A stretch of DNA of 60,566 bases. It comes from an uncultured Sphaerobacteraceae bacterium. GTDB lineage: Bacteria > Chloroflexota > Chloroflexia > Thermomicrobiales > UBA6265. The stretch covers positions 1,622 through 62,187 of the forward strand of contig CAZUPA010000004.1 of the NCBI GenBank assembly GCA_964622205.1, given 5' to 3'. Each line of letters begins with the position of its first letter. Within the stretch, counting starts at the first letter, position 1. Of the stretch, positions 3 to 60,426 are shown piece after piece. A program made the translations under genes and the position numbers. Below the pieces are notes generated by a model. That model saw only the letters and a list, made by a program, of their open reading frames with translations, ran no database searches and was not told the DNA's origin.

Positions 3-416
3 GCCTATCCGGAAGATCTTCGGAAGGGCGTGCTGGCGGCCCAGCGCCTGCCGGAGTCCCTGCTCGACGAAGGCGTCACCGGCGACGTCTTTCCCATTCG
101 CGGCGTTGGCGAGGTGATGAAGGGCGGCACCGATGTCGCCGATGTCTCGTGGGTCGTCCCGACCGGGCAGGTCACCACCGCCTGCTTCGTGCTTGGCGTC
201 CCCGGCCATAGCTGGGCGAACACCGCCGCCTCCGGCATGTCGATTGGCCACAAGGGGATGATCCACGCGGCAAAGGCGCTCGCCGTCACCGCCGCGCGGC
301 TGATCCTCGACCCGGACCTGATCGGCGCCGCGAAAACCGAGTTCACCCAGTCCACCGCCGGTCGCCCGTACCAGAGCCCGATTCCCGAGCACGTCACACC
401 CCGCGTGGTGGCGTAG
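3..416 (+). CDS. M20 family amidohydrolase (AbgB-like), C-terminal fragment; the 5' end lies outside the window
   Basis: The reading frame is open to the window edge. The whole fragment aligns by eye with the C-termini of the full paralogues at 15281-16726 and 16775-18202 (DVSW..PTGQ, G.PGHSWA, SIGHKGM, STAGRPY..PIP). Confidence 0.8.
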   Translation, partial: AYPEDLRKGVLAAQRLPESLLDEGVTGDVFPIRGVGEVMKGGTDVADVSWVVPTGQVTTACFVLGVPGHSWANTAASGMSIGHKGMIHAAKALAVTAARLILDPDLIGAAKTEFTQSTAGRPYQSPIPEHVTPRVVA

Positions 417-545: not shown

Positions 546-1178
546 ATGAATGAATCAACGGTGATGGTGATCGACTATCGGACCGGCAATTCCCAGAGCG
601 TGGCCTACGCGCTGGAGGCTCTGGGCGTCGATCACCAGGTGGCTCGTTCGCCGGACGAGGTCGGCGATATCACCCACATCATCCTGCCGGGCGTGGGCGC
701 GGCGGGCACGACCATGCGGTATCTGGCGGAGGGCGACTGGCTCGATTGGCTGCATGATCGCGTCATCGAGCAGAGAACGCCCTTTCTCGGCGTCTGCGTA
801 GGCCTGCAGGTGATCTTCGAATCGAGCGACGAACAGGACGCAGCCTGCCTGGGATGGTTCCCGGGCCATGTCCGCGCGTTCGATCGCGGGGCGGTCCGGG
901 TTCCTCACATGGGCTGGAACCAGGTGACACCCGTTTCGCGTCATCCGTTCGTGGCGGAACTCCCGGACGATCCCTACTTCTACTTCGTCAACTCGTACTT
1001 CGCCGTTCCTTCGGACGGGGCCTTGCTGGCGGGTATCGCCGAGTACAACGGGCCGTTCGCCGCGATCGTGGCCCGGGAGAACATCATGGCGACGCAGTTC
1101 CACATCGAGAAGTCCGGGCCAGTCGGCCTCTCCCTGCTCCGTCGCTTCGCCTCGCTCTCCCTGGAGGACCTGTCATGA
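546..1178 (+). CDS. hisH: Glutamine amidotransferase, HisH type (imidazole glycerol phosphate synthase subunit H-like)
   Basis: Class I GATase motifs are present: ILPGVG, nucleophile elbow GVCVGLQ, and QFHIEKS (His-Glu). GGTGGAG lies 6 nt upstream of the ATG at 546. The stop overlaps the hisF start (ATGA). Confidence 0.85.
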   Translation: MNESTVMVIDYRTGNSQSVAYALEALGVDHQVARSPDEVGDITHIILPGVGAAGTTMRYLAEGDWLDWLHDRVIEQRTPFLGVCVGLQVIFESSDEQDAACLGWFPGHVRAFDRGAVRVPHMGWNQVTPVSRHPFVAELPDDPYFYFVNSYFAVPSDGALLAGIAEYNGPFAAIVARENIMATQFHIEKSGPVGLSLLRRFASLSLEDLS

Positions 1179-3506: not shown

Positions 3507-4928
3507 TCAGAAAATCGACATGCGGCCGGGCGCGAGTTCGTCCGCCAGGGCAGATCGCACCGCCCGCAGCGCGCGCTCAAGTTGCGGCCGGGCCACCGTG
3601 CTCAGGCAGAGTCGCAGTCCGGAAATCAGGCTCCCGTCCACCAGGTACGACGAAGGCGGGGTCAGCACCACGCCGCGCCGTAGCGCGCCGTTCGCGATGC
3701 GCTCGGCCGCCAGTTCCGGCATCGGCATCCAGGCGTGCAGGCTGGACCCGAACGAGGGCTCTTCGATCGCGTCGCCCAGCATTCGACGGGCCAGCGTCAT
3801 CCGGTGACTCGCCTCCTGTGCCACCGCTCCTCGGACCTCGTCCGCCGCGCCGTCCTTGATCAACTGGCAGGTCAGCAACGCGCTTACCGAACTGGTCGCG
3901 TAGCAGGTGGCGTGCATCGCCCGCTCGAACCGCGCGAACCGGTCCTCGTCCGGAGCCACCAGGATGCCCACTCGCAGCCCCATCGCGATCGGCTTCGACA
4001 CGCTGCTCACGTAGCATGTCCGCTCCGGCGCAAGGCTTGCCAGCGGCACGATATCCGGCCGCTTCCCGCCCAGCGCGAACCCGACCGGCGCGTACACGTC
4101 GTCCTCGATCAGCGTCAGGTCGTGCTTGCGGGCGACGCGAACGATCTCTTCTCGCCTCGCGCGGGGCATCGTGCGGGAGGTGGGATTCTGCAGCGTCGGC
4201 ATCACATAGGCCAGCCTCGCGCCGGTCGCCACGACCGCCGCTTCCAGCGCGTCGGGCAAGAGTCCTTCCTCGTCCATCGCCACGCCCACGCATCGCGCGC
4301 CGCGGTAGTCCACCAGGGTTCGGAACCCGCTGAAGGTCGCCGCTTCGGTCAGCACCACGTCGCCAGGCTGGCAGTACGCATCCATCACCAGCGACAGCGC
4401 GTGCTGCGCGCCAGTGGTCACCAGCAGTCGCCGCCAGTCGATCCCGTCGAATTGCGCCGCCTTGCGGAACCAGGCCGCCAGCGTCTTGCGATGCCACTCG
4501 ATCCCGGCGTGCGGCGCCACCGTCAGGTGCCGCAACAGGTCAGGCCGCTGGTGGACGCGCGCCATGCCTTCCGCGATGGCTGGAACCGCGAGGTCGAGCG
4601 CCTGCAGGTTAAGCGACAGGTCAATCGTCGTCTCGCTTTCGAAGAGTTCACCTGCCCCGGTTGATTCCCGCGGCGGCGAGGCCGCGCTCGCCACGAAGGT
4701 CCCGCGACCCACCGCGCTCGTCAGCAGGCCCAGCCGTTCCGCCTCAGCGTAGGCCCTCGTGACCGTTCCCACGCCGATGCCAAGCCGGGCGGCCAGTTCG
4801 CGATGCGGCGGCATCTTGCCTTCAGGAATCAGCGACCCGGTCCCGATATCGGCCCGCAGCGCCTGTACGATGCGCTCGTACAGCGTCCCGTTGTGTGTAT
4901 CCAGCCTGGGCTGCCATGTCTCGTTCAT
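3507..4928 (-). CDS. MocR/PdxR-type regulator (GntR HTH fused to an aminotransferase-fold domain)
   Basis: N-terminal GntR HTH (LYERIV..L...I..G.L..G.K.P..RELA..LG..R.TV..AY). It is followed by a long fold-type I aminotransferase-like domain. It is divergent from an aminotransferase gene. Start chosen at MNETW. Confidence 0.8.
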   Translation of the reverse strand: MNETWQPRLDTHNGTLYERIVQALRADIGTGSLIPEGKMPPHRELAARLGIGVGTVTRAYAEAERLGLLTSAVGRGTFVASAASPPRESTGAGELFESETTIDLSLNLQALDLAVPAIAEGMARVHQRPDLLRHLTVAPHAGIEWHRKTLAAWFRKAAQFDGIDWRRLLVTTGAQHALSLVMDAYCQPGDVVLTEAATFSGFRTLVDYRGARCVGVAMDEEGLLPDALEAAVVATGARLAYVMPTLQNPTSRTMPRARREEIVRVARKHDLTLIEDDVYAPVGFALGGKRPDIVPLASLAPERTCYVSSVSKPIAMGLRVGILVAPDEDRFARFERAMHATCYATSSVSALLTCQLIKDGAADEVRGAVAQEASHRMTLARRMLGDAIEEPSFGSSLHAWMPMPELAAERIANGALRRGVVLTPPSSYLVDGSLISGLRLCLSTVARPQLERALRAVRSALADELAPGRMSIF

Positions 4929-5033
4929 GCGCCGATGGTACAACCTGAGTGTCTTAATGACAATCATGGAGACAATTGGATTATGTGTTGATACAGTTTG
5001 GTGCATCGACCTCAATGAGCTGGAGGAGCACCC

Positions 5034-6314
5034 ATGAAACTCACGCCGTTGTCACCCGCCATCGACTGGTCCACCGCGTTCGCGGGACGCAACGCCCACA
5101 TTCGCCCGTCCGAAATCCGCGAGTTCCTGAAGCTGCTGGGCCAGCCAGGCATCGTCTCGTTCGCCGGTGGCATCCCAGCCCCGGAACTCTTCCCGGCCGA
5201 TGCCCTCCAGGCGGCGATGACCAGGCTCATGGGCGATCCGGCCCGCCAGGCCCAGGCCATGCAGTACGCCTCCAGCGAAGGCTACCTGCCGCTTCGCGAG
5301 TGGATCGCCGCCCACATGGGCCGCATCGGCGTCGAATGCACGCCCGCCAACATCGTCATCACCACTGGCTCCCAGCAGGGCCTCGATCTCATCGGCAAGC
5401 TCTTCCTCGATCCCGGCGACGAAGTGCTCCTTCCTGCTCCCGCCTATCTCGGCGCGATCCAGGCATTCAATGTCTACGAGCCTTTCTACGGCGCCATCGA
5501 CCTCGCCACCGGTGAAATCGATGGCTCCGGAAACCCCGCCATTGCCTACATCGTTCCCGACTTCGCCAATCCAAGCGGCGAGACCATCTCTCTCGCCCAG
5601 CGCCAGGAACTGCTCGACCGCACCGAGAGCCTCCACCTGCCGATCGTCGAGGATGCCGCCTATCAGGCCCTCCGCTACGAAGGAGAGCCCGTTCCTCCTT
5701 TGCTCGCGCTCGATATCGAACGCGCCGGAAGCATCGAACGCTCCCGCGTCATGTACGCCGGCACCTTCTCGAAGACCATTTCGCCCGGGATGCGCGTGGG
5801 CTGGCTCTGCGCTTCCGAGGAGGTGATCCGGCAAATCGTCCTCATTCGCCAGGCCGCCGATCTTCACGGGTCCATCCTCGACCAGATGCTGATGGCCGAT
5901 GTCATCACGACCGGCTTCGACAATCAGGTCGCAACCATCCTGCCGGTCTACCGCCACCGCCGCGACGCCATGCTCGCCGCCCTCGACCGGCACATGCCGG
6001 AGGGCGTCACCTGGACCCGCCCAGAGGGCGGCATGTTCATCTGGCTCACGCTTCCGGAGGGGCTGGACAGCCGCGCCCTGGTTCGCCAGTCCATCGACGA
6101 GGAAGGCATCGTCTTCGTGCCCGGCACGTCGTTCTTCGCCGATGGCTCCGGCCAACGCCACATTCGCCTCAACTACACCTGCTCGGACGACGCCACCATC
6201 GAGGATGGCATCCGTCGCCTCGCCGCGCTGATCTCACGGCAGGCGAGCCTGGGCGTTGTATCCAGTGATTGCATGCAACACCACCCTGCCCTCAAGGAGG
6301 CTGTCATGGCCTGA
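5034..6314 (+). CDS. PLP-dependent aminotransferase, class I/II (2-aminoadipate/kynurenine aminotransferase-like)
   Basis: PSEIREFLKL..PG..SFAGG.P.PELFP N-terminal signature. The SKT..PG.R.GW lysine block is present (FSKTISPGMRVGW). Confidence 0.8.
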   Translation: MKLTPLSPAIDWSTAFAGRNAHIRPSEIREFLKLLGQPGIVSFAGGIPAPELFPADALQAAMTRLMGDPARQAQAMQYASSEGYLPLREWIAAHMGRIGVECTPANIVITTGSQQGLDLIGKLFLDPGDEVLLPAPAYLGAIQAFNVYEPFYGAIDLATGEIDGSGNPAIAYIVPDFANPSGETISLAQRQELLDRTESLHLPIVEDAAYQALRYEGEPVPPLLALDIERAGSIERSRVMYAGTFSKTISPGMRVGWLCASEEVIRQIVLIRQAADLHGSILDQMLMADVITTGFDNQVATILPVYRHRRDAMLAALDRHMPEGVTWTRPEGGMFIWLTLPEGLDSRALVRQSIDEEGIVFVPGTSFFADGSGQRHIRLNYTCSDDATIEDGIRRLAALISRQASLGVVSSDCMQHHPALKEAVMA

Positions 6315-6639: not shown

Positions 6640-7410
6640 ATGACTGCTCTCCCGCACCGCCCGTTCACCCGCCGTGCCCTGCTCGGCGGAGCGTCGATCG
6701 TGGGCGTGGGCGCCTGGGCCCACCGCGCCAGTGGACGCCAGGCTTCCGACCCCGTCGTGGAAGGAGACTGCGAAGACGAACCAGCCGTCAGGATGCTGTT
6801 CAACTGGCGGGCTGGTCTGCCCGTCTACCAGTCGGTCGCGGAATCCGGGCCCCAGCTCGACTGGCAACCCTTCAACCACCCGGACTTCCTCGGACCGTTC
6901 CTCATTCCTCCTGGATGGACCGGCTCCGCGGCCTGGGCCGCCAGCTTCACTCGCGACGGGGTTCCCGAGTGGCGGGACGAGCCGATGAGTCTCCCCCAGT
7001 TGACCCTCTCCCGCGTCACCTCACCCGATCGCGATGCGTCCTTCGAGTACGCCATCGGGTCGATTCAGAACGCCCTCCTCACCACCCAGCAATCCGCGAC
7101 TGTCGCCAAACAGAGTGTCCTTGGCGCCAACCCTCGCCTGCGCTCCGTCTGCTCGGTCGACGACCAGGGAAACGCCCTTGCTCCCGGCTGGTTCTCCGCT
7201 GACCGCCACCGCTCGAGTCTCCTCATCACCTTTGGCACGGCCCTCCCGTTGCCAAGCGAGGTCCTTCCCGGCACCGTCGTCTCCTTCAACAGCATGTTTG
7301 GGCGCCGCCGTGAGATGGAAGACCTCATGTACGACGTCTTCCTCCGGATTCTCTTCCAGTTTCTGGGCGGTGGGAGCGGCGATCCGACGCCTACCCCGAC
7401 ACCCACCTGA
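6640..7410 (+). CDS. Tat-exported hypothetical protein
   Basis: Twin-arginine signal FTRRALLGGASIVGVGAWA. The C-terminal tail is GGGSGDPTPTPTPT. I recognise no family. Confidence 0.6.
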   Translation: MTALPHRPFTRRALLGGASIVGVGAWAHRASGRQASDPVVEGDCEDEPAVRMLFNWRAGLPVYQSVAESGPQLDWQPFNHPDFLGPFLIPPGWTGSAAWAASFTRDGVPEWRDEPMSLPQLTLSRVTSPDRDASFEYAIGSIQNALLTTQQSATVAKQSVLGANPRLRSVCSVDDQGNALAPGWFSADRHRSSLLITFGTALPLPSEVLPGTVVSFNSMFGRRREMEDLMYDVFLRILFQFLGGGSGDPTPTPTPT

Positions 7411-20568: not shown

Positions 20569-22968
20569 ATGACGGATACACCTACTTCTCGACTCGATAC
20601 GCTCGATACCGGCGACGATGCCACCATTCCACATGAGCCGGACACCGCTCCCGATTCGCCGGAGGAAAACGTCGATTCGGCCGCCACGGAACCGGGGCAG
20701 GCGGATGCTGTCGCCAGCGCCGAACCGGCTGAGGGCGACGCGGAAGCCGATGCCGATGCCACGGAAGCCGGAACCGAAGATGAAGGTGAACCGGAAGCCG
20801 CGGCCGTCGACAACGCCGAACCCGCGTTCGAAGCGACCCCGCTCTTCAACAGCAGCTATTTCTCGCCCCTCACCCCCGAGGCGTCGCCCAACGGCGAGTG
20901 GCTGGCTTACCTGCTCGAGCAGGCCGATGGCGCCATTCGCCTGTGGATTTCCCCCACCGATGGCGGCGATCCTATCCCGGTCGACCTGCCGTTCGAGCCA
21001 GTCGTCGAGCGCGATCCCGATACTGGCCGCCTGATCCGCGGCCCGCAGTGGTCGCCCGATGGCTCGACCATCGCCTTGACTGGCGTGGTCGAAGGCGAGG
21101 ACCGAACCGGTATCTGGTTTGTGCCGTCTCCGGTCGATAGCCGCTCGGTCCCGGCGGTCGTCGTCGCCTCCGTGACGGACGACGATGAGTCCGGCGAGGG
21201 CGACGTGGACGGCGAATCGCCCGAAGCGTCCGAGGAAGTCGCCTCCGATGCCGAAACCGGGGAGGCGGCCGAAGCCGAAGCCACCGGGGAAACCAGCGAC
21301 GATGTCCAGCCCGCGGTTGTCGCCAGCGAAAGCGCCGGCCCCGACGAGGGCAACGCCCCGATCGCGCCGCCCGTTGAAACGGAAGTCGCCGCTCCGGTCG
21401 ACCTCACCGGGGAGCAGCCCGAGCGAACCATCCGGCTCCTCACCTGGGGACCTGGTTCCGAACGCTCCCCCCGCTGGTCGCCCGATGGCAACCTGATCGC
21501 CTTCGTGAGCAATCGCGACCGCCGCGACACCATCGCCCTCGCCACCACGGCCGGAGACGACCCGACCATCGCCGAACTGCTCACCTGGAGCGACCAGGAC
21601 GATCGCGAGCCGGTCTGGTCCCGCGATGGCCGGTTCCTCGCCTTCACCCGGCAACTCTCCGATGGCCTGGAACACGCCGACATCCTCGTGTATTCCCCCG
21701 AGAACGGTGAACTCATCAACCTCACCGAAGCCAAGCCCAGCGCCGTCCGCCACTCGCTCGATTGGGTCGCGGGCCGCAACCTCGTCGCCTATGTCACCCA
21801 GGACGGCGATTGGCTCTCGATTTCCGTCATCAACGCCGACAACAAGGCCGGTTGGGCCGTCACCCGCGAGTCCGGCGACAAGACCGAACCCCGCTTCCAC
21901 CCAACCGAAGCCCGGCTCGTCTACATCCGCTCGGAAGGGTTCGCCACCGTTTGCTGCGAACGCGGTCTCCACGCCTCCGGCGCCGTCGCGCTCGATCCCA
22001 GCGAGGGCGTCGTCCATTCGCCGCGCTGGTTGCGCGACAAGCGCGTGGTCTACGGATTCAGCTCCTCCCAGAAGCCGTTTGGCTTCCTCGCCCAGGAAAA
22101 CACCGCCGCCGCCGAGCGCGTTCCCGTTCAGTCGCCGGAAGCGCCGTCCACGTCCGGCTTCTCCTTTCGCCATCCCGTCCCGTTCGAATTCGCCCTTGGC
22201 GAGGACGAGCAGTTCTCCGGCATGCTCTATCGCACCCAGGGCGCCGTTGGTCCCATGCCCGCCATCGTCTACCTCCCTGACGGCCCGCTCGAAATTCGTC
22301 GCGGCGACTTCAATCTCGAAGAGCAGGCGCTCGCCAGCAGCGGCATCACTGTCTTCACGCCCCTGCTCCACGGCGCCACTGGGTTCGGCCATGCCATCGA
22401 GAGCGATCTTGCCGATCTCTCCAGCGCCGAAATCGAGGCCTCCGACATCGCCGAGGCTGGCTATGGTCTCGCCGAGGACGACAGCATCGATGGCGGCAAG
22501 CTCGCCCTCGTCGGGGCCGGGTATGGCGCGACTCTGGGCCTGGTCACCGCCGGCGCCCGCCCTGGCGTCTACTCCGCCGTAGTGGCCATCGACCCGATCA
22601 CCGACTGGTCGATCGAACTGGGCGAAAGCGATCCCGCCTGGCGAAACTGGGTTTCGGCCCAGTACGGAATGCCGCTCACCCATCCCGACCGATACGCCCT
22701 TCGCTCGCCGTCGACCTTCTCCTCGGTGATCGACGTGCCGGTCATCCTGGTTTCGACCGCCTCCGCGCCGGTCTACCGCCAGGCGCAGATGGAACTCTTC
22801 GCCGCGTATCTCGACGCCACCGGTGTCGCCTACGAGCACATCGCGGCGCCAGACGAGCCGCTCACCGCCACCCTCGAACGCGTCAGCCGCAAGCTGGCCT
22901 CCATGTACGGTGGCGAAAGCGGGTCGCTGGAGATCGTCGATGGCGTCCAGGCCAGCGCGATCGGATAG
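20569..22968 (+). CDS. S9 peptidase homologue (PD40 beta-propeller plus alpha/beta-hydrolase domain), predicted catalytically inactive
   Basis: PD40 repeats are present (SPDGS.IA, SPDGN.IAFVS.RD, SRDGRFLAF). The nucleophile elbow reads G-A-G-Y-G where S9 enzymes have G-x-S-x-G. The HG..D block is replaced by STASAP. It has long acidic N-terminal and internal inserts. Confidence 0.75.
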   Translation: MTDTPTSRLDTLDTGDDATIPHEPDTAPDSPEENVDSAATEPGQADAVASAEPAEGDAEADADATEAGTEDEGEPEAAAVDNAEPAFEATPLFNSSYFSPLTPEASPNGEWLAYLLEQADGAIRLWISPTDGGDPIPVDLPFEPVVERDPDTGRLIRGPQWSPDGSTIALTGVVEGEDRTGIWFVPSPVDSRSVPAVVVASVTDDDESGEGDVDGESPEASEEVASDAETGEAAEAEATGETSDDVQPAVVASESAGPDEGNAPIAPPVETEVAAPVDLTGEQPERTIRLLTWGPGSERSPRWSPDGNLIAFVSNRDRRDTIALATTAGDDPTIAELLTWSDQDDREPVWSRDGRFLAFTRQLSDGLEHADILVYSPENGELINLTEAKPSAVRHSLDWVAGRNLVAYVTQDGDWLSISVINADNKAGWAVTRESGDKTEPRFHPTEARLVYIRSEGFATVCCERGLHASGAVALDPSEGVVHSPRWLRDKRVVYGFSSSQKPFGFLAQENTAAAERVPVQSPEAPSTSGFSFRHPVPFEFALGEDEQFSGMLYRTQGAVGPMPAIVYLPDGPLEIRRGDFNLEEQALASSGITVFTPLLHGATGFGHAIESDLADLSSAEIEASDIAEAGYGLAEDDSIDGGKLALVGAGYGATLGLVTAGARPGVYSAVVAIDPITDWSIELGESDPAWRNWVSAQYGMPLTHPDRYALRSPSTFSSVIDVPVILVSTASAPVYRQAQMELFAAYLDATGVAYEHIAAPDEPLTATLERVSRKLASMYGGESGSLEIVDGVQASAIG

Positions 22969-22981
22969 TCACGCCACCATC

Positions 22982-23009
22982 AGCGGAGCAGCCGGTGGGC
23001 CGCTCCGCT
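22982..23009 (+). terminator. GC-rich hairpin after the S9-like gene (no U tract)
   Basis: AGCGGAGC-A-GCC GGTG GGC-C-GCTCCGCT lies 14 nt after the stop. Parts of it recur at 23268-23296. Confidence 0.4.
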
Positions 23010-23115
23010 ATCGTGTGTCCATGTCACCGGGGGAAACCCATACACCGGCACGCACCGCATGGGAGGCAGTTTTAGGATGCCGGTTAGGGTTTCCGTACTG
23101 GTGCTCCAAGCCATT

Positions 23116-23189
23116 CACCAGTACGGAAGTCCTAGCCAGCCGCGGGCGGACCGCTTCCCAGAGTGCCGTCGGCTGGCGTATGGGCTTCC
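23116..23189 (+). ncRNA. Candidate structured non-coding element, copy A (unknown family)
   Basis: Conserved CACCAG..GTACGG leader. Hairpin GGAAGTCC-TA-GCCAGCCG-[27 nt]-CGGCTGGC-GTAT-GGGCTTCC. It aligns ungapped with copy B at 53 of 71 positions. Two stem pairs covary and there is one U-G wobble. No convincing ORF. Confidence 0.45.
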
Positions 23190-23405
23190 CCGTTGGGCGT
23201 CTGAAAAAGGTTGTCGGGCAAATCGCGCTGGCACCGCCGGATCATCCCTACGTTGCGCGCATCGTGGCCGCTCCACTACCATCAGCGGAGCCAGCCCCGG
23301 CTTTGGGATGGCCAGTTTCCGCAAATACATGCTTCATCCCGTCAATCCGGCCAGATAGTCCGCGCGGTGGCGCGGATCGCTGGCGAATAGGCGCGGGTGT
23401 GGTGA

Positions 23406-25244
23406 ATGGGTCTGCCCTCAATGTCGTCACGGAACTCGTCAGCCGGTCCTGAATCTCCGTCCCAGTCCACATTGAGTCGCCGCCACCTCGCGGTGGTTGG
23501 AGGCGCGTCCATCGCCGCCGTCGCGGGGATCGGCGCGGCCTCAATCTGGGGCGATTCCAACGGGGCCTCGCTCGACGACGGTTCCGGTGGCGCGACACCG
23601 CCTCGATCCACCCAGGCTCCCGCCCCACCAACCGACGAGCCCGCCAGCACACCGGACGCCAGCACTCCCGAACCCCCGGTCGAGACCCAGGCCCCGGTCG
23701 AACAGGTCGATCCCGCTACCTTGCTGGATACCGCCTCCATCCGCGAACTGCGCGGCTACCTCGATGCCGGAGCCTTCACCGTCGCCGATCTTCTCCAGGC
23801 TTCGCTCGCCCGGATCGAGGAGATCGACGGCGGCGATATCGCGGTTAACGCCATCATCACGCTCAACCCCGACGCCGAAACCATCGCCGCCGAGCTCGAC
23901 GCCGAACTCCTGGCCGGAACCGTTCGTGGCCCGCTCCATGGCATCCCCGTGCTGCTGAAGGACATCGTCGCCACCGGCGACCAGATGCCGAACACGGCGG
24001 GATCGCTCGCGATGGAAGAGAACATCGCCAACCGCGATGCCTTTCTCGTCACCCTGCTGCGCGAGGCCGGAGCCGTCATCCTCGGTAAAACCAACCTCAC
24101 CGAATGGTCCAACTTCATGGGCAGCACTGGGCTCAGCGGCTGGAGTTCGCTCGGCGGCCTCACCGTCAACCCACACAATCTCAACATGTCCGCGTCGGGG
24201 TCCAGCTCTGGCTCAGCGGCCGCCGTCGCCGCTGGCTACGTGCCGCTGGCGATTGGCGCCGAGTTCGACGGATCCATCATTGCCCCAGCCTCCCAGTGCG
24301 GTATCGTCGGCCTCAAACCCACCGTCAGCCTCACCAGCCGAACAGGTGTCATTCCCATCGGCTTCACCCGTGACTCCATCGGCCCGATGACAAAGACGGT
24401 CGAAGATGCCGCCATCGCCCTCAGCATCATGGCGGGCTACGATCCGGAAGATCCTTCCCGCACCGTTGGCGCCTCCACCGCCACCTGGGCGATGTTCGAC
24501 GAGGAACCGGTCCAGCAGCCAGGCACGGTCGACTACACCGAAGCGCTCGACCCGGATGCCCTTTCCGGCGCCCGCATTGGGATTTGCGTCAACTTCGGTG
24601 ATTTTGGCGACGCGTCGATGACGCTGTTCGATGATGTCCTCCCGATCCTGGAAGCGGCTGGCGCCGAGGTCATTTCGGACGTTGCCGTACCCGGCTTTGG
24701 AGAACTCGAAAGCACCTATACCAACAGCCTCACCGAGTTCTCCTGGGGCCTCCAGAACTATCTCGATACCTTCACCCCCGATGGCCCGATGCAGACCATT
24801 CAGGACATCGTCACCTTCAACGATGAGCATGCCGAGGACACCCTCGCCATGACCGACCAGAGCGGTCTCACCGACGCCCTCGAAGCCCGAACCATCGACG
24901 ATCCCACCTATCTCGCCGTGACGGAGACCAACACCACCGCCATGCGCGCCCACGGCATCGACGCCATCATGGACGAGCTGGAACTCGACGCCCTTATCGC
25001 TCCCACCGCCACCCTCGCGGTTGGCGCCTGGCAGCATAGCGGCTTCGCATCTTCGTCCAATGCCTCGTCACTCGCCGGCTACCCGTCGATCACCATCCCC
25101 ATCGGCACGTCGGACTCGCTCCCGGCCGGTATCCACTTCTTCGGCCGGGCCTTCAGCGAAGCCCGCCTCCTCGGTCTCGCCTACGCGCTGGAGCAGCTCC
25201 TGCCCGCCCGCCCCATCCCCGAATACATCCCCCGCGAGGAATAG
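23406..25244 (+). CDS. Amidase-signature family amidase, Tat-exported
   Basis: Tat motif SRRHLAVVGG. AS blocks: HGIPVLLKD, GKTNL.E, GSSSGSAAAVAAG. Confidence 0.85.
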   Translation: MGLPSMSSRNSSAGPESPSQSTLSRRHLAVVGGASIAAVAGIGAASIWGDSNGASLDDGSGGATPPRSTQAPAPPTDEPASTPDASTPEPPVETQAPVEQVDPATLLDTASIRELRGYLDAGAFTVADLLQASLARIEEIDGGDIAVNAIITLNPDAETIAAELDAELLAGTVRGPLHGIPVLLKDIVATGDQMPNTAGSLAMEENIANRDAFLVTLLREAGAVILGKTNLTEWSNFMGSTGLSGWSSLGGLTVNPHNLNMSASGSSSGSAAAVAAGYVPLAIGAEFDGSIIAPASQCGIVGLKPTVSLTSRTGVIPIGFTRDSIGPMTKTVEDAAIALSIMAGYDPEDPSRTVGASTATWAMFDEEPVQQPGTVDYTEALDPDALSGARIGICVNFGDFGDASMTLFDDVLPILEAAGAEVISDVAVPGFGELESTYTNSLTEFSWGLQNYLDTFTPDGPMQTIQDIVTFNDEHAEDTLAMTDQSGLTDALEARTIDDPTYLAVTETNTTAMRAHGIDAIMDELELDALIAPTATLAVGAWQHSGFASSSNASSLAGYPSITIPIGTSDSLPAGIHFFGRAFSEARLLGLAYALEQLLPARPIPEYIPREE

Positions 25245-44829: not shown

Positions 44830-44861
44830 AAGGGCAGGTCGCCGATCGGTGACCTGCCCTT
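44830..44861. terminator. 32-nt near-perfect palindrome after the peptide ABC operon
   Basis: AAGGGCAGGTCGCCGATCGGTGACCTGCCCTT has one G-T wobble. The tail is T-poor. Confidence 0.5.
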
Positions 44862-45046
44862 CCTTGTCGCGCCCACGTCTCCGTGCTCCCGCCTGCCCCG
44901 GGAGGAAACCCATGCGTGGCGCGCGCCCGATGGCATGGCTGGATCTCGCTCCCAGCCAGGATTTCCGTACTGGGTTGACGAAGGGTCACGACACGGTTTG
45001 CGGAACGGTCAGTGGCAGCCATCTGCTACCATGTCCGCACTCCAGG

Positions 45047-45066
45047 ACTTCAAGGACACTTGAAGT
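45047..45066. promoter_or_regulatory. SoxR-box-like 7-4-7 palindrome
   Basis: ACTTCAAG-GACA-CTTGAAGT compared with the enterobacterial CCTCAAG-TTAA-CTTGAGG. It lies 26 nt upstream of the soxR ATG. Confidence 0.6.
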
Positions 45067-45091
45067 CAACCCCTGATGGAGAGGATATGCC

Positions 45092-45580
45092 ATGGCATCC
45101 AGCGTGCGAACATCGACGTGGTTCACCATTGGCGAACTGGCCAAACGCACTGGCGTCGCCACCTCGGCCCTGCGCTTCTACGAGGAGCGCGGGCTGATCA
45201 GTTCGGTGCGCAACGAGTCGGGCCACCGGCGTTTTCCCCGCGCCGTTGCTCGCCGTGTCTCGTTCATCGTGTTCGCCCAACGCGTTGGATTGACGCTTGA
45301 GGAAATCGGGCAGGAGCTTGCCCGTTTGCCCAGCCACCGCATCCCGCGGGAGAAGGACTGGGACCGCCTGACCACCTTGTGGACCGCTCGCATCGAAGAG
45401 CGAATCCAGGAATTGCGCCGCCTGCAATCCGGTCTCACCCGGTGCATCGGCTGCGGCTGCCTCTCACTCCAGGAGTGCGCGGTCATGAATCCCCACGACC
45501 AACTGGCGGAACACGGTCCCGGGCCTCGCTACTGGTTCGGCGACGAGCCGCTCGCCGGGCGTGGTCCTGGCGACGAGTGA
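45092..45580 (+). CDS. soxR: Redox-sensitive MerR-family activator SoxR
   Basis: MerR HTH (IGELAKRTGV..SALRFYE..GL). Exact [2Fe-2S] motif CIGCGCLSLQEC (CX2CXCX5C). Confidence 0.9.
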   Translation: MASSVRTSTWFTIGELAKRTGVATSALRFYEERGLISSVRNESGHRRFPRAVARRVSFIVFAQRVGLTLEEIGQELARLPSHRIPREKDWDRLTTLWTARIEERIQELRRLQSGLTRCIGCGCLSLQECAVMNPHDQLAEHGPGPRYWFGDEPLAGRGPGDE

Positions 45581-58770: not shown

Positions 58771-59710
58771 TCAGGTGTCCCCGGTTCCATGCAATAGCGC
58801 CGGAATCACTCCAATGGCCCCCAATCTTGCAGGGAAGTCGCGATTTCCACTCCCCGGACCAATCTCCGGAGCCGCGTATCCGCCTCTTGCCGCGTCTCCC
58901 TTGATGAGTTGGTCGGCCTGGCAAATCGCCCACGTTTCGCCATTGATCTCCTGCCCAAACAGGCGCACGGCCACGGATTTGCCACGATCGGCGGCGATCT
59001 GCTTCAGGCGTTCTTCCGCCACCGAGAGCATGCCACCCGTTCCGCACGCGCCGTCGTAGATGAGCTTGAGCGAGGGTGTCACCTCATCCGCCACCGGTAC
59101 CAGCACCAGGTCGGCCATCAGCGCCACCACATCCCGCGGGGTGAAGTGCTCACCAGCCTCTTCATTGTTTTCTTCGTTGAAGCGCCGGATCAGCTCCTCG
59201 AAAATCGTACCCATCGCGTGATTGTCCCGCCCTCGGCAGGTTGCCAACCGGATTCGGGCCAAGATTGATGCTGGGATCGACGAAGCGCTGGATGAGCGGA
59301 CCAAGCCGGTCGGCCGCCACCAGCTTGGGAATCTGGGCGCGGAACTCGAAATGCCGCAGCAACTCGCGCACGTTCGGCGAGTAGCTATCGAGGTAGTTGA
59401 GGAAATTGGCTTCCAGTTGGGTCGAACTGTTGAGGAGTGACCGCAGCGTGAATCGCGAGGTGTTGTAGAAGTCATGGCCAGCCGCTTTGCGCAGGATTTG
59501 GTCCGGGTCTGTGATGCTGTTTTCCCGCGCCCACTCCAACTGAGCCAGCACCTCGTTCTTGGTTGGCTCCAGCACCGTGTCGAATCGCCTCAGCACCATC
59601 ATTGGCAGGATGATGTCGCGATACTTCGTCTTCTTGTAAACGTGGTGCAGCACCTCGTCGGCAACTCACCAGACGAATGACACGATTTGACCATGTTGAG
59701 CCGAATGCAT
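58771..59710 (-). pseudogene. hsdM: Type I restriction-modification methyltransferase HsdM, decayed (in-frame stop, frameshift, 3' truncation)
   Basis: HsdM blocks are split over two frames. N-terminal blocks: YRDIILPMMVLRRFD..LEPTK. Later blocks: DNHAMGTIFEELIRRFNE..NEEAGEHFTPRDV and YDGACGTGGML. The TGA at 59666-59668 interrupts MHSAQHGQIVSFVW*VADEVL. The frame shifts near 59225-59235. Homology ends after QLIKGDAA, before the NPPF motif. No hsdS or hsdR is present. Confidence 0.75.
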
Positions 59711-59947
59711 TGCGTGCGCTGCCTCTCTTGAGATGTATCGTTTTCCCTATGCATTGTAGGAAGCCCTGGGAGTGATGTCGACACTGTGCTTCACCGAATT
59801 GCTTTCAGCGAGTTCCCGAAGCCCGCTTCCAGCACTCGATGACTCTCTGCCACTGGCCAGTTTTCGGCGAGGTGGCGGGTCTTCTTCGTTTCGATGCGTT
59901 CACTGGGTATGGCGCGGTGCAAAACGGGTGAGATATACCTGTCCCGC

Positions 59948-60025
59948 CACCAGACAGTACGGAAGTCCTAAGCAGCCGTGGAGCGTGTGCCTCGCTGAGA
60001 ACTGTCGGCTGCTGTATGGACTTCC
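59948..60025 (+). ncRNA. Candidate structured non-coding element, copy B (paralogue of 23116-23189)
   Basis: CACCAGACAGTACGG leader. Hairpin GGAAGTCC-TA-AGCAGCCG-[27 nt]-CGGCTGCT-GTAT-GGACTTCC. The arm lengths, loop length and internal loop are the same as in copy A. Confidence 0.45.
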
Positions 60026-60426
60026 TTAATTGGGCGATGGAATGCATCCCGCTTTCCGCGCGCCGCTCTTGATGACCCGGTCATTGCCTACCCACCGACC
60101 ATCCACACACGGAAGGACCAGTCGATATGCACGTCGCTGCGCACGACAACATGACTACCGAGCCAACATTAATTCCGGTGCCTACATTAATCCTCAACCC
60201 CAAAAACCCCGCCACTCCGGGCAGAATCGCTCCCGGAAGTCGATTAAATGTATTAATGGATTATTGTTGGCGAAAAACACATCGCCAGACTATCGATCAT
60301 CGCCGGGCCAACCCTCTTTGCTCATCCCCTCACGACGCTCCTTGTTCCGCCACATGCGGCGTCCTATCCTGACACCAGTGGCACGGCTCCCGGATGGACC
60401 ACCAGACAACACGGATCGAGGAACAT

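Follow-up and report, generated by a model that had tools for sequence, protein, structure and literature searches.

A dispersed, two-tier tagged hairpin of Sphaerobacteraceae-like Chloroflexota is very probably a REP element of a RAYT transposase system

Repetitive extragenic palindromes (REPs) that carry a GTAG tag have been catalogued in more than 80 species, the Chloroflexi phylum included (Di Nocera et al., 2013, PMC3733652). The catalogue holds 24 GTAG families with stems of 6-13 bp, some of them with loops whose self-complementary interiors reach 27 bp, and it admits degenerate tags (GYAG, GTRG, GTMG and GTGG), dimers with the tags inside or outside, among which heterodimers are preferred, and G.T pairs in the stems, which were taken as a hint of RNA-level roles of REPs (PMC3733652). 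Genes of REP-associated tyrosine transposases (RAYTs) are called REPtrons there when they are flanked by REPs and TIRtrons when the flanking sequences are long terminal inverted repeats (TIRs). Here we describe a tagged hairpin element found in a 60,566-nt stretch of DNA (the window) of an uncultured Sphaerobacteraceae bacterium (assembly GCA_964622205.1, contig CAZUPA010000004.1, positions 1,622 to 62,187 of the forward strand). The element is very probably a REP, non-autonomous and active as a single strand, that forms part of a RAYT system (with a tyrosine transposase of the HUH/Y1 type) in a Sphaerobacteraceae-like Chloroflexota genome. Its family is a previously uncatalogued one within the known REP/RAYT class, set apart by how long the element is, by a bulged stem in two tiers and by the GTAC tag.

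The element resembles the GTAG REPs (the REP and BIME elements of E. coli, the REP and REPIN elements of Pseudomonas and the families of the catalogue) in the unpaired 5' tetranucleotide tag at the foot of an imperfect palindrome, in the covarying, G.T-containing stems, in the extragenic dispersal, in the frequent inverted dimers and in the inverted copies that flank Y1/HUH RAYT genes. It is unlike them in length (71 nt vs 20-40 bp), in the two-tier stem of 16-18 bp with a TA/GTAT joint and an apex of about 27 nt, in the GTAC tag of most copies and in its Sphaerobacteraceae host. In the IS200/IS605 insertion sequences (IS608 and ISDra2) and their non-autonomous derivatives, the PATEs, a Y1 HUH transposase recognises a subterminal single-stranded DNA hairpin that has extrahelical bases and, 5' of its foot, a short guide or tag. 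The hairpin described here would be recognised in the same single-stranded form, and the RAYT proteins associated with it match IS200 weakly; however, IS200/IS605 elements have differing left and right ends around tnpA and often a tnpB, whereas here one hairpin type is repeated, no tnpB is present and the protein is read far better as a RAYT (61.6 vs 20.9 bits). Integron attC sites are likewise imperfect hairpins with extrahelical bases, a variable centre and single-strand-specific recombination. The attC candidature was rejected, as the element has no R''/R' boxes (RYYYAAC/GTTRRRY), no same-orientation cassette arrays and no nearby integrase, and the enzyme is a Y1 HUH protein.

Thermomicrobium roseum belongs to the same bacterial class, Thermomicrobia. 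Its GTAG-23 family, the only Chloroflexi REP family of the catalogue, forms clustered blocks at few loci and lies inside small palindromes (PMC3733652). It is of the same superfamily of tagged palindromes, but the family presented here is dispersed as singletons and doublets and has a longer, different body, a distinction drawn from the published description. The flanking repeats of TIRtrons (TIRYTs) are also long and inverted, and they too form moderately abundant repeat families with dimers, but they are described as unrelated to GTAG repeats (PMC3733652), whereas the element here has kept a tag, GTAG or GTAC, and its outer stem resembles that of the short GTAG REPs found beside sister RAYTs. 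The string "GTAC" does not occur in that paper, and a literature search for "repetitive extragenic palindromic" together with "Sphaerobacter" returned no paper.

The hairpin element and its copies in the window

The first-pass annotation of the window had pointed to the gap between a peptidase S9 gene and an amidase gene, where it saw no credible open reading frame and a 71-nt core shared with one distant intergenic site, and had proposed an undescribed structured RNA. The alignment and the fold were confirmed by our data. Positions 23119-23189 and 59955-60025 align without gaps and are identical at 53 of 71 positions, and the gene call, a rough one made from third-codon-position GC, places no gene in 22969-23405. 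As + strand RNA both copies form an 8-bp outer stem, GGAAGUCC with GGGCUUCC or GGACUUCC, and inside it an inner stem of 8 bp, which is preceded by UA, closes a loop of about 27 nt and is followed on the return side by GUAU (fold-energy z-scores of -2.8 and -3.6 against shuffled controls). Two adjacent pairs of the inner stem are changed in a compensated manner (GC/GC vs AG/CU), and the sole change in the outer stem gives U-G vs U-A.

Two copies had been noticed; the window contains four. A search with the leader revealed two further sites, both on the minus strand, and the structural pattern ACGGAANNCC-N35-60-GGNNTTCC occurs four times where 0.01 occurrences are expected, at 23032-23096 (-), 23123-23189 (+), 44904-44968 (-) and 59959-60025 (+). 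The same four sites were recovered by a covariance model (model R1), the E-values of which are rough due to a shortened calibration. Copy A+ spans 23111-23195 on the + strand (77.2 bits, E=3.6e-15), with its tag CAGTAC at 23119-23124 and its hairpin at 23125-23189, and copy B+ spans 59947-60031 on the + strand around the core at 59955-60025 (68.5 bits, E=2.8e-13); these are the two copies noticed originally. Copy A- (23026-23108, - strand, 80.9 bits, E=5.5e-16), which is also supported by the pattern match and by its fold, is inverted and abuts copy A+; its core is 23032-23100, its outer stem GGAAACCC/GGGTTTCC and its inner stem ACCGGC/GCCGGT. Copy C- (44898-44980, - strand, 47.4 bits, E=1.1e-8) keeps the CAGTAC tag and a covarying outer stem (GGAAATCC/GGGTTTCC), and its interior is rearranged. 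With the filters of the model switched off, the window gave no other match above 16 bits. The outer stems of the four copies (GGAAGTCC/GGGCTTCC, GGAAGTCC/GGACTTCC, GGAAACCC/GGGTTTCC and GGAAATCC/GGGTTTCC) covary.

The segment 23026-23195 is thus a doublet with its tags inward, which joins two different subtypes and can be compared with a BIME or REPIN. The CAGTAC leaders of its two copies face one another across a 12-nt spacer, and the tag-to-tag junction at 23085-23134 consists of the 19-nt arms TAGGGTTTCCGTACTGGTG and CACCAGTACGGAAGTCCTA on either side of it; the fold of 23085-23200 is accordingly a 19-bp leader-leader hairpin. This pairing of inverted leaders explains the alternative long hairpin which had been read as a competing stem particular to one copy, with mutually exclusive folds in the manner of a riboswitch. 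The 13-bp complementarity of 23091-23103 with 23116-23128 on which that reading was based is exact; the switch is not upheld, since the complementarity is the signature of an inverted REP doublet.

Across the family the element is composed of an unpaired 5' tag CAGTAC, an 8-bp outer stem of GGAANNCC with GGNNTTCC, an asymmetric and conserved joint of TA opposite GTAT, a freely covarying inner stem of some 8 bp and, at the apex, about 27 nt of variable sequence, which amounts to 71 nt with 16-18 bp of stem. In an alignment of 36 copies, which takes in those flanking transposase genes, it is the unpaired positions of the tag and the joint that are conserved. The tag has G in 36/36 copies, T in 35 and A in 34, and at the fourth position 29 copies have C and 7 have G; GTAG is carried by the copies flanking RAYT genes and by two free copies, GTAC by the remainder. 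On the 5' side of the joint T is present in 36/36 and A in 30/36 copies, and on the 3' side G, T, A and T are found in 36, 31, 35 and 34 of the 36. The hairpin is stable with RNA as well as with DNA energy parameters, and with the latter the joint resolves into two T-A pairs, with a G and a T each bulged out singly from the 3' arm, so that a nearly continuous helix of 18 bp is formed.

The data on covariation are strong. Among 27 copies selected by pattern, 95.1% of the alignment cells pair, compared with 81.7% after shuffling and 31-56% with slid partners, and changes on both sides of a pair are seen in 70 cells vs 24.5 in the shuffles. Where the outer stem is free to vary, at its two NN positions, pairing is kept in 27/27 copies (AU, GC, CG, UG and UA), and the same structure was recovered independently by RNAalifold. 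The 36-copy alignment, which was fitted to model R1 and hence leans toward the structure, gave 94.7% pairing cells, changes on both sides in 12 of 16 pairs and 34-53% in slid controls. The wobble pairs favour the tagged strand, with G.T exceeding A.C by 22 to 7 overall and by 10 to 1 in the outer stem. The strand-specific fold that the first-pass annotation had read from its wobble pair is thus supported.

Distribution of the family and its association with RAYT genes

One scan of 185,579 species-representative genomes with the strict pattern CAGTACGGAANNCCT-N30-60-ATGGNNTTCC returned 20 loci, 17 of which belong to three metagenome-assembled genomes of Chloroflexota/Sphaerobacteraceae; one of these, the assembly JAEWEG01, contains at least 13 copies that match the strict pattern. 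Model R1 added four diverged copies within the scanned loci. Two matches in unrelated phyla are weak (21-24 bits with R1) and look like chance. A further locus (L014) is a contig binned as Microbacterium in the study SRP344714, which is also the source of two of the Sphaerobacteraceae assemblies. This 1.9-kb contig (CAYNTU010000077.1, 'uncultured Microbacterium sp.') carries a typical Sphaerobacteraceae-type REP doublet, and it is probably mis-binned and no evidence of the family in Actinomycetota. In addition to the four copies in 60.5 kb of the window, 27 copies of the same subfamily are present in loci of related assemblies. The element is a dispersed multi-copy repeat family of Sphaerobacteraceae/Chloroflexota.

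According to the rough gene call all of these copies (31/31) are intergenic. Their orientation to the flanking genes is mixed: some stand upstream of a gene and point the same way as it does, others are placed between convergent genes and at least four singletons are antisense to both neighbours (copy C- of the window, L003, L013:5872 and L019). The free doublets are tag-inward in 6/6 cases and never tag-outward (the window at 23026-23195, L002, L011, L014 and two in L016), and their partners differ in the inner stem. In three of them the copies abut with a spacer of about 12 nt (the window, L002 and L016:1-151), and L011, L014 and L016:6192-6445 are wider. The 5' ends of the abutting tag-to-tag copies are only about 12-26 nt apart, which leaves no space for two promoters. 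Several short metagenome contigs (L005, L009, L018, L020 and L030) end in or beside a REP copy, often on the tag side, which fits inverted REP doublets breaking short-read assemblies.

A link to RAYT genes was found at the locus L011, where a decayed C-terminal half of such a gene lies at 342-599 between two copies of the element (71 and 83 bits with R1). The 247-bp spacer translates, with one in-frame stop, to a product in which GWFKTVTTKRYIQGVRTRG precedes and PPFDGHVWHTSFRDRIIRDEDAFAAIARYVEANPQRW follows the stop, and the fragment matches NCBIfam NF047646 (REP_Tyr_transpos, "REP-associated tyrosine transposase") with E=3e-6 at positions 80-133 of 146, a fragment match with a score under the full-length cut-off. 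A search for homologous proteins with the 67-aa remnant returned nothing, no 5-mer words being in common, and a scan of metagenome contigs with the same fragment led to the loci L021 and L022. After correction of a one-base frameshift in a G-run, the RAYT of these loci scores 37.3 bits with Pfam Y1_Tnp (cut-off 23) and 61.6 bits with REP_Tyr_transpos, its best NCBIfam match, vs 20.9 bits with IS200 TnpA. An intact protein that is 99% identical to it (P0001) and 83 more relatives were found, several of which are labelled "REP element-mobilizing transposase RayT" by JGI. On the related metagenome contigs two RAYT genes are frameshifted in the G-run and three are intact. The run is at the same place in L021 (about 590-600) and in L022 (about 600-612), which both come from metagenome Ga0299914, and counts 4 G in the former and 6 G in the latter, while 5 G would be in frame; either the homopolymer was misread in sequencing or the transposase is switched on and off by slipped-strand variation.

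The RAYT genes on these contigs are flanked by inverted hairpins of the R1 type. Their tag is GTAG and their outer stem GGGAGGAC/GTCCTCCC; the TA...GTAT joint is identical, and the inner stem covaries. In L021 the gene at about 237-729 stands between copies at 98-180 (+) and 738-823 (-), in L022 the gene at about 260-745 between copies at 122-207 (+) and 753-837 (-), and in L024/L025 the gene at 4855-5352 between copies at 4742-4825 (+) and 5399-5483 (-). In L031 the gene at 210-707 is preceded by a copy at 86-171 (+) and followed by two, at 748-832 (-) and 859-942 (+), which form a tag-inward doublet. In L028 the gene at 365-892 has a full upstream copy at 225-309 (-, 24.7 bits with R1) and a downstream copy that was seen by eye and is cut by the contig end; the tags face the gene, as in L011. 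The RAYT relatives L026, L027 and L033 had no significant hairpin match with R1. Two of these sister RAYTs, those of L026 and L027, are flanked by short classical REPs, for example GTAG-GGGCCGGCC-loop-GGCCGGCCC and GTAG-GGGAGGCC-ctgtgt-GGCCTCCC, which indicates that the outer stem and the tag of our element are homologous to those of ordinary GTAG REPs. Thus the two-tier element looks like an ordinary GTAG REP whose loop grew an inner stem-loop.

Proposed mechanism and rival explanations

The properties by which REPs are recognised are present here: a covarying stem-loop palindrome, a tetranucleotide tag in a variant form, dispersed intergenic copies and inverted dimers with partners of differing subtype. 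The REPtron arrangement, a RAYT gene flanked by inverted copies, was observed on related contigs and was not seen in the 60 kb of the window. From the homology to Y1_Tnp and REP_Tyr_transpos we infer that a cognate RAYT would bind and cleave the single-stranded tagged hairpin. By analogy with TnpA-REP of E. coli and TnpA of IS608, the tagged strand would fold into the hairpin whenever it is single-stranded, for example in the lagging-strand template. A RAYT dimer could then read the shape of the stem, the bulges and the 5' tag, and nick and rejoin the DNA nearby, by which copies would be spread or maintained. Selection would act on the fold and not on the sequence of the stem, which would give rise to the covariation; the bulges and the G.T pairs would make one strand only competent, and the apical region, if it is not read by the RAYT, would be free to vary. 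Copies that are transcribed might also form RNA hairpins, with mRNA stabilisation or transcription attenuation as a possible secondary effect.

Several points speak against this interpretation and have to be set beside the evidence. The length of 71 nt with a stem of 16-18 bp exceeds the 20-40 bp usually quoted for REPs, and the commonest tag is GTAC, not GTAG. No intact RAYT was detected by tblastn and motif scans in the window or in the first 20 loci (about 0.2 Mb of these genomes was inspected, and 60 kb of the window's own genome was available), and in loci with the exact CAGTAC subfamily the decayed remnant of L011 is the only RAYT. The copies flanking the RAYT genes on the related contigs, two of which are frameshifted, are of a sister subfamily that scores 21-38 bits with R1 vs 47-88 bits for the family members. 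Insertion polymorphism (a filled vs an empty site) was not found, as blastn of the window against all loci gave no syntenic region, and mobility is therefore a prediction from sequence. The copy number for a complete genome is an extrapolation and not a count, and selection at the RNA level would give covariation and a G.T bias equally.

The last point leads to the explanation by independently transcribed structured small RNAs, or by a cis-regulatory RNA motif, on the tagged strand. The strong covariation, the one-strand bias of G.U over A.C and the conservation of the unpaired leader and of the internal loop are what such RNAs would display, and about 70 nt upstream of copy C-, on the same strand, there is a palindromic site of MerR type that resembles an operator/promoter. 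Also no known RNA family accounts for the element, as had been stated before: a search of both strands of the entire window against Rfam gave nothing at gathering thresholds, and permissive scans of all three sites returned only sub-threshold hits to mir-12, MIR1094, RT-19, sX5, mir-3622 and SNORD10, which are unrelated and mostly eukaryotic miRNA/snoRNA families. However, the copies are found in mixed orientation and several are antisense to both neighbours, the 5' ends in the doublets leave no room for two promoters, and neither a sigma-70-like promoter nor an intrinsic terminator was detected in 22900-23500, the stems being followed by C-runs and not by T-runs. Moreover, inverted copies flank RAYT genes, for which there is no reason in an RNA gene family. 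We therefore regard an RNA gene family as very unlikely. The first-pass annotation had named membership in a larger known insertion sequence or miniature inverted-repeat transposable element (MITE) as an outcome that would speak against its RNA, and the association of a dispersed, mixed-orientation repeat with RAYT genes is in substance such an outcome; neither the new RNA gene nor its independence from mobile DNA is supported.

Individual motifs and classes were considered separately and rejected. Inspection by eye found no tandem G.A pairs at the joint for a K-turn, no opposed AGUA and GAA strands for a sarcin-ricin or loop E motif and no pairing of GUAC with GUAU in the covarying structure for domain V of a group II intron. 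A CRISPR repeat was dismissed for want of a regular array and an intrinsic terminator for want of a T-run. A regulatory or untranslated-region element is not supported in view of the mixed orientation with several copies antisense to both neighbours, and neither is a stand-alone transcript, as promoter- or terminator-like signals are absent around the pair.

If the arms acted as double-stranded DNA, the element could be a MITE or the solo ends of a DDE-transposase insertion sequence with the arms as its terminal inverted repeats. It is indeed a short, dispersed, intergenic inverted repeat at whose copies contigs break. But a conserved target-site duplication is not evident in the aligned flanks, the arms covary rather than keep their sequence, as expected of a strand that folds on itself but not of a terminal repeat bound as double-stranded DNA, the asymmetric bulges and the G.T bias indicate one strand, and the only transposase adjoining the copies is of the Y1/HUH RAYT type. 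We consider this explanation extremely improbable. A domesticated or orphan REP, no longer mobilised and kept for a host function (stabiliser of mRNA 3' ends, attenuator, site for a nucleoid protein or for gyrase), is closer to our interpretation, as it would have the same origin and class and would not exclude it. Such roles have been proposed for REPs (PMC3733652), the CAGTAC subfamily was not seen with any intact RAYT, and the only gene associated with it is decayed. However, the inspection for RAYT genes covered about 0.2 Mb of these genomes, and the mixed orientation and the frequent placement between divergent genes are ill-suited to a role at 3' ends. We regard this explanation as very unlikely.

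With the element taken as a REP of a RAYT system, it is conceivable, though rather doubtful, that the long, two-tier, doubly bulged GTAC hairpin represents a distinct mode of RAYT recognition, in which the change from GTAG to GTAC would have co-evolved with a Sphaerobacteraceae RAYT lineage and an ancestral short GTAG REP would have received the inner stem-loop as an insertion, either tolerated or functional. The same tentative suggestion would allow a conserved RNA role of the tagged-strand transcript, which would make the element mobile DNA and a structured RNA motif at once.

Strong covariation, strand-specific wobble pairs and the absence of an Rfam match resemble a new riboregulator, and a false positive of this kind has been removed. 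As repeats that act as single-stranded DNA mimic the covariation of RNA, the copy number in the genome and the gene neighbourhood should be checked first. A REP/RAYT system is added for Sphaerobacteraceae (Chloroflexota), where only the clustered GTAG-23 of T. roseum was catalogued, and the series of variants (short GTAG REPs, two-tier GTAG and two-tier GTAC elements) could be used to study how RAYTs read the tag, the bulges and the stem. Model R1 and the pattern allow these repeats to be masked in searches for non-coding RNA and help to explain the breaks of metagenome contigs in this group. What has been gained is a clean explanation, together with a new family from a lineage that is under-sampled; the kind of system itself is not new.

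Neighbouring genes and further observations

The doublet A-/A+ lies between the peptidase S9 gene and the amidase gene mentioned above. The Pfam Amidase domain begins at residue 128 of the longest open reading frame at 23406-25244 (+), and the start codon may be well downstream of 23406, in which case the gap around the doublet is longer than 437 nt.

The neighbours of copy C- are the gene of an oligopeptide ABC ATPase and merR (45092-45580, +), and the copy is antisense to both; a search with the ABC ATPase found only short Logan contigs with the same arrangement, which offered no empty site for comparison. The interval between merR and copy C- contains a perfect MerR-type palindrome, GACTTCAAG-tgtc-CTTGAAGTC, at 45046-45069, within a promoter-like arrangement TTGACT-N19-TGGAGT on the minus strand that points to copy C-. 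A GC hairpin is found beyond this copy at about 44830-44861, and on the minus strand there no gene is called before the end of the convergent ABC transporter gene.

Copy B+ stands between a fragmented hsdM gene and a downstream gene. The hsdM gene (58774-59653, -), a type I restriction methylase gene, appears split, with the HsdM_N domain in the open reading frame 59165-59653 and a partial N6_Mtase domain (profile positions 2-101 of 311) in an overlapping open reading frame, 58774-59475, that is read in a different frame; a frameshift or decay of the gene is the probable cause.

A second module of about 125-145 nt was noticed at 60141-60285 (+) of the window, at 110-245 (-) of L004 and at 7255-7383 (+) of L007. 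It is unusually AT-rich for a genome of 64% GC and has a small GC hairpin with ACATTAAT / ATTAATG repeats, both direct and inverted, on its two sides. The window and the two JAEWEG01 loci share 74-77% identity in it, and each time it is 110-230 nt downstream of a REP copy. A match in Rfam was not found for this module. The genes downstream of it differ, the one in the window starting from 60428 and the one in L007 having a product that reads like methylmalonyl-CoA mutase, and a gene-specific leader is thus unlikely; the module may be another repeat or a shared regulatory site. The 13-mer TCGATGCGTTCAC, followed by YGGG, is found at 59891-59903 of the window, 52 nt upstream of copy B+. The same 13-mer is present at about 365-377 (-) of L004 and at 7104-7116 of L007, where it lies downstream of the REP copy. 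As the 13-mer is on opposite sides, the position of the REP varies along a shared backbone that runs from the 13-mer to the AT-rich module, which hints at independent REP insertions at that backbone.

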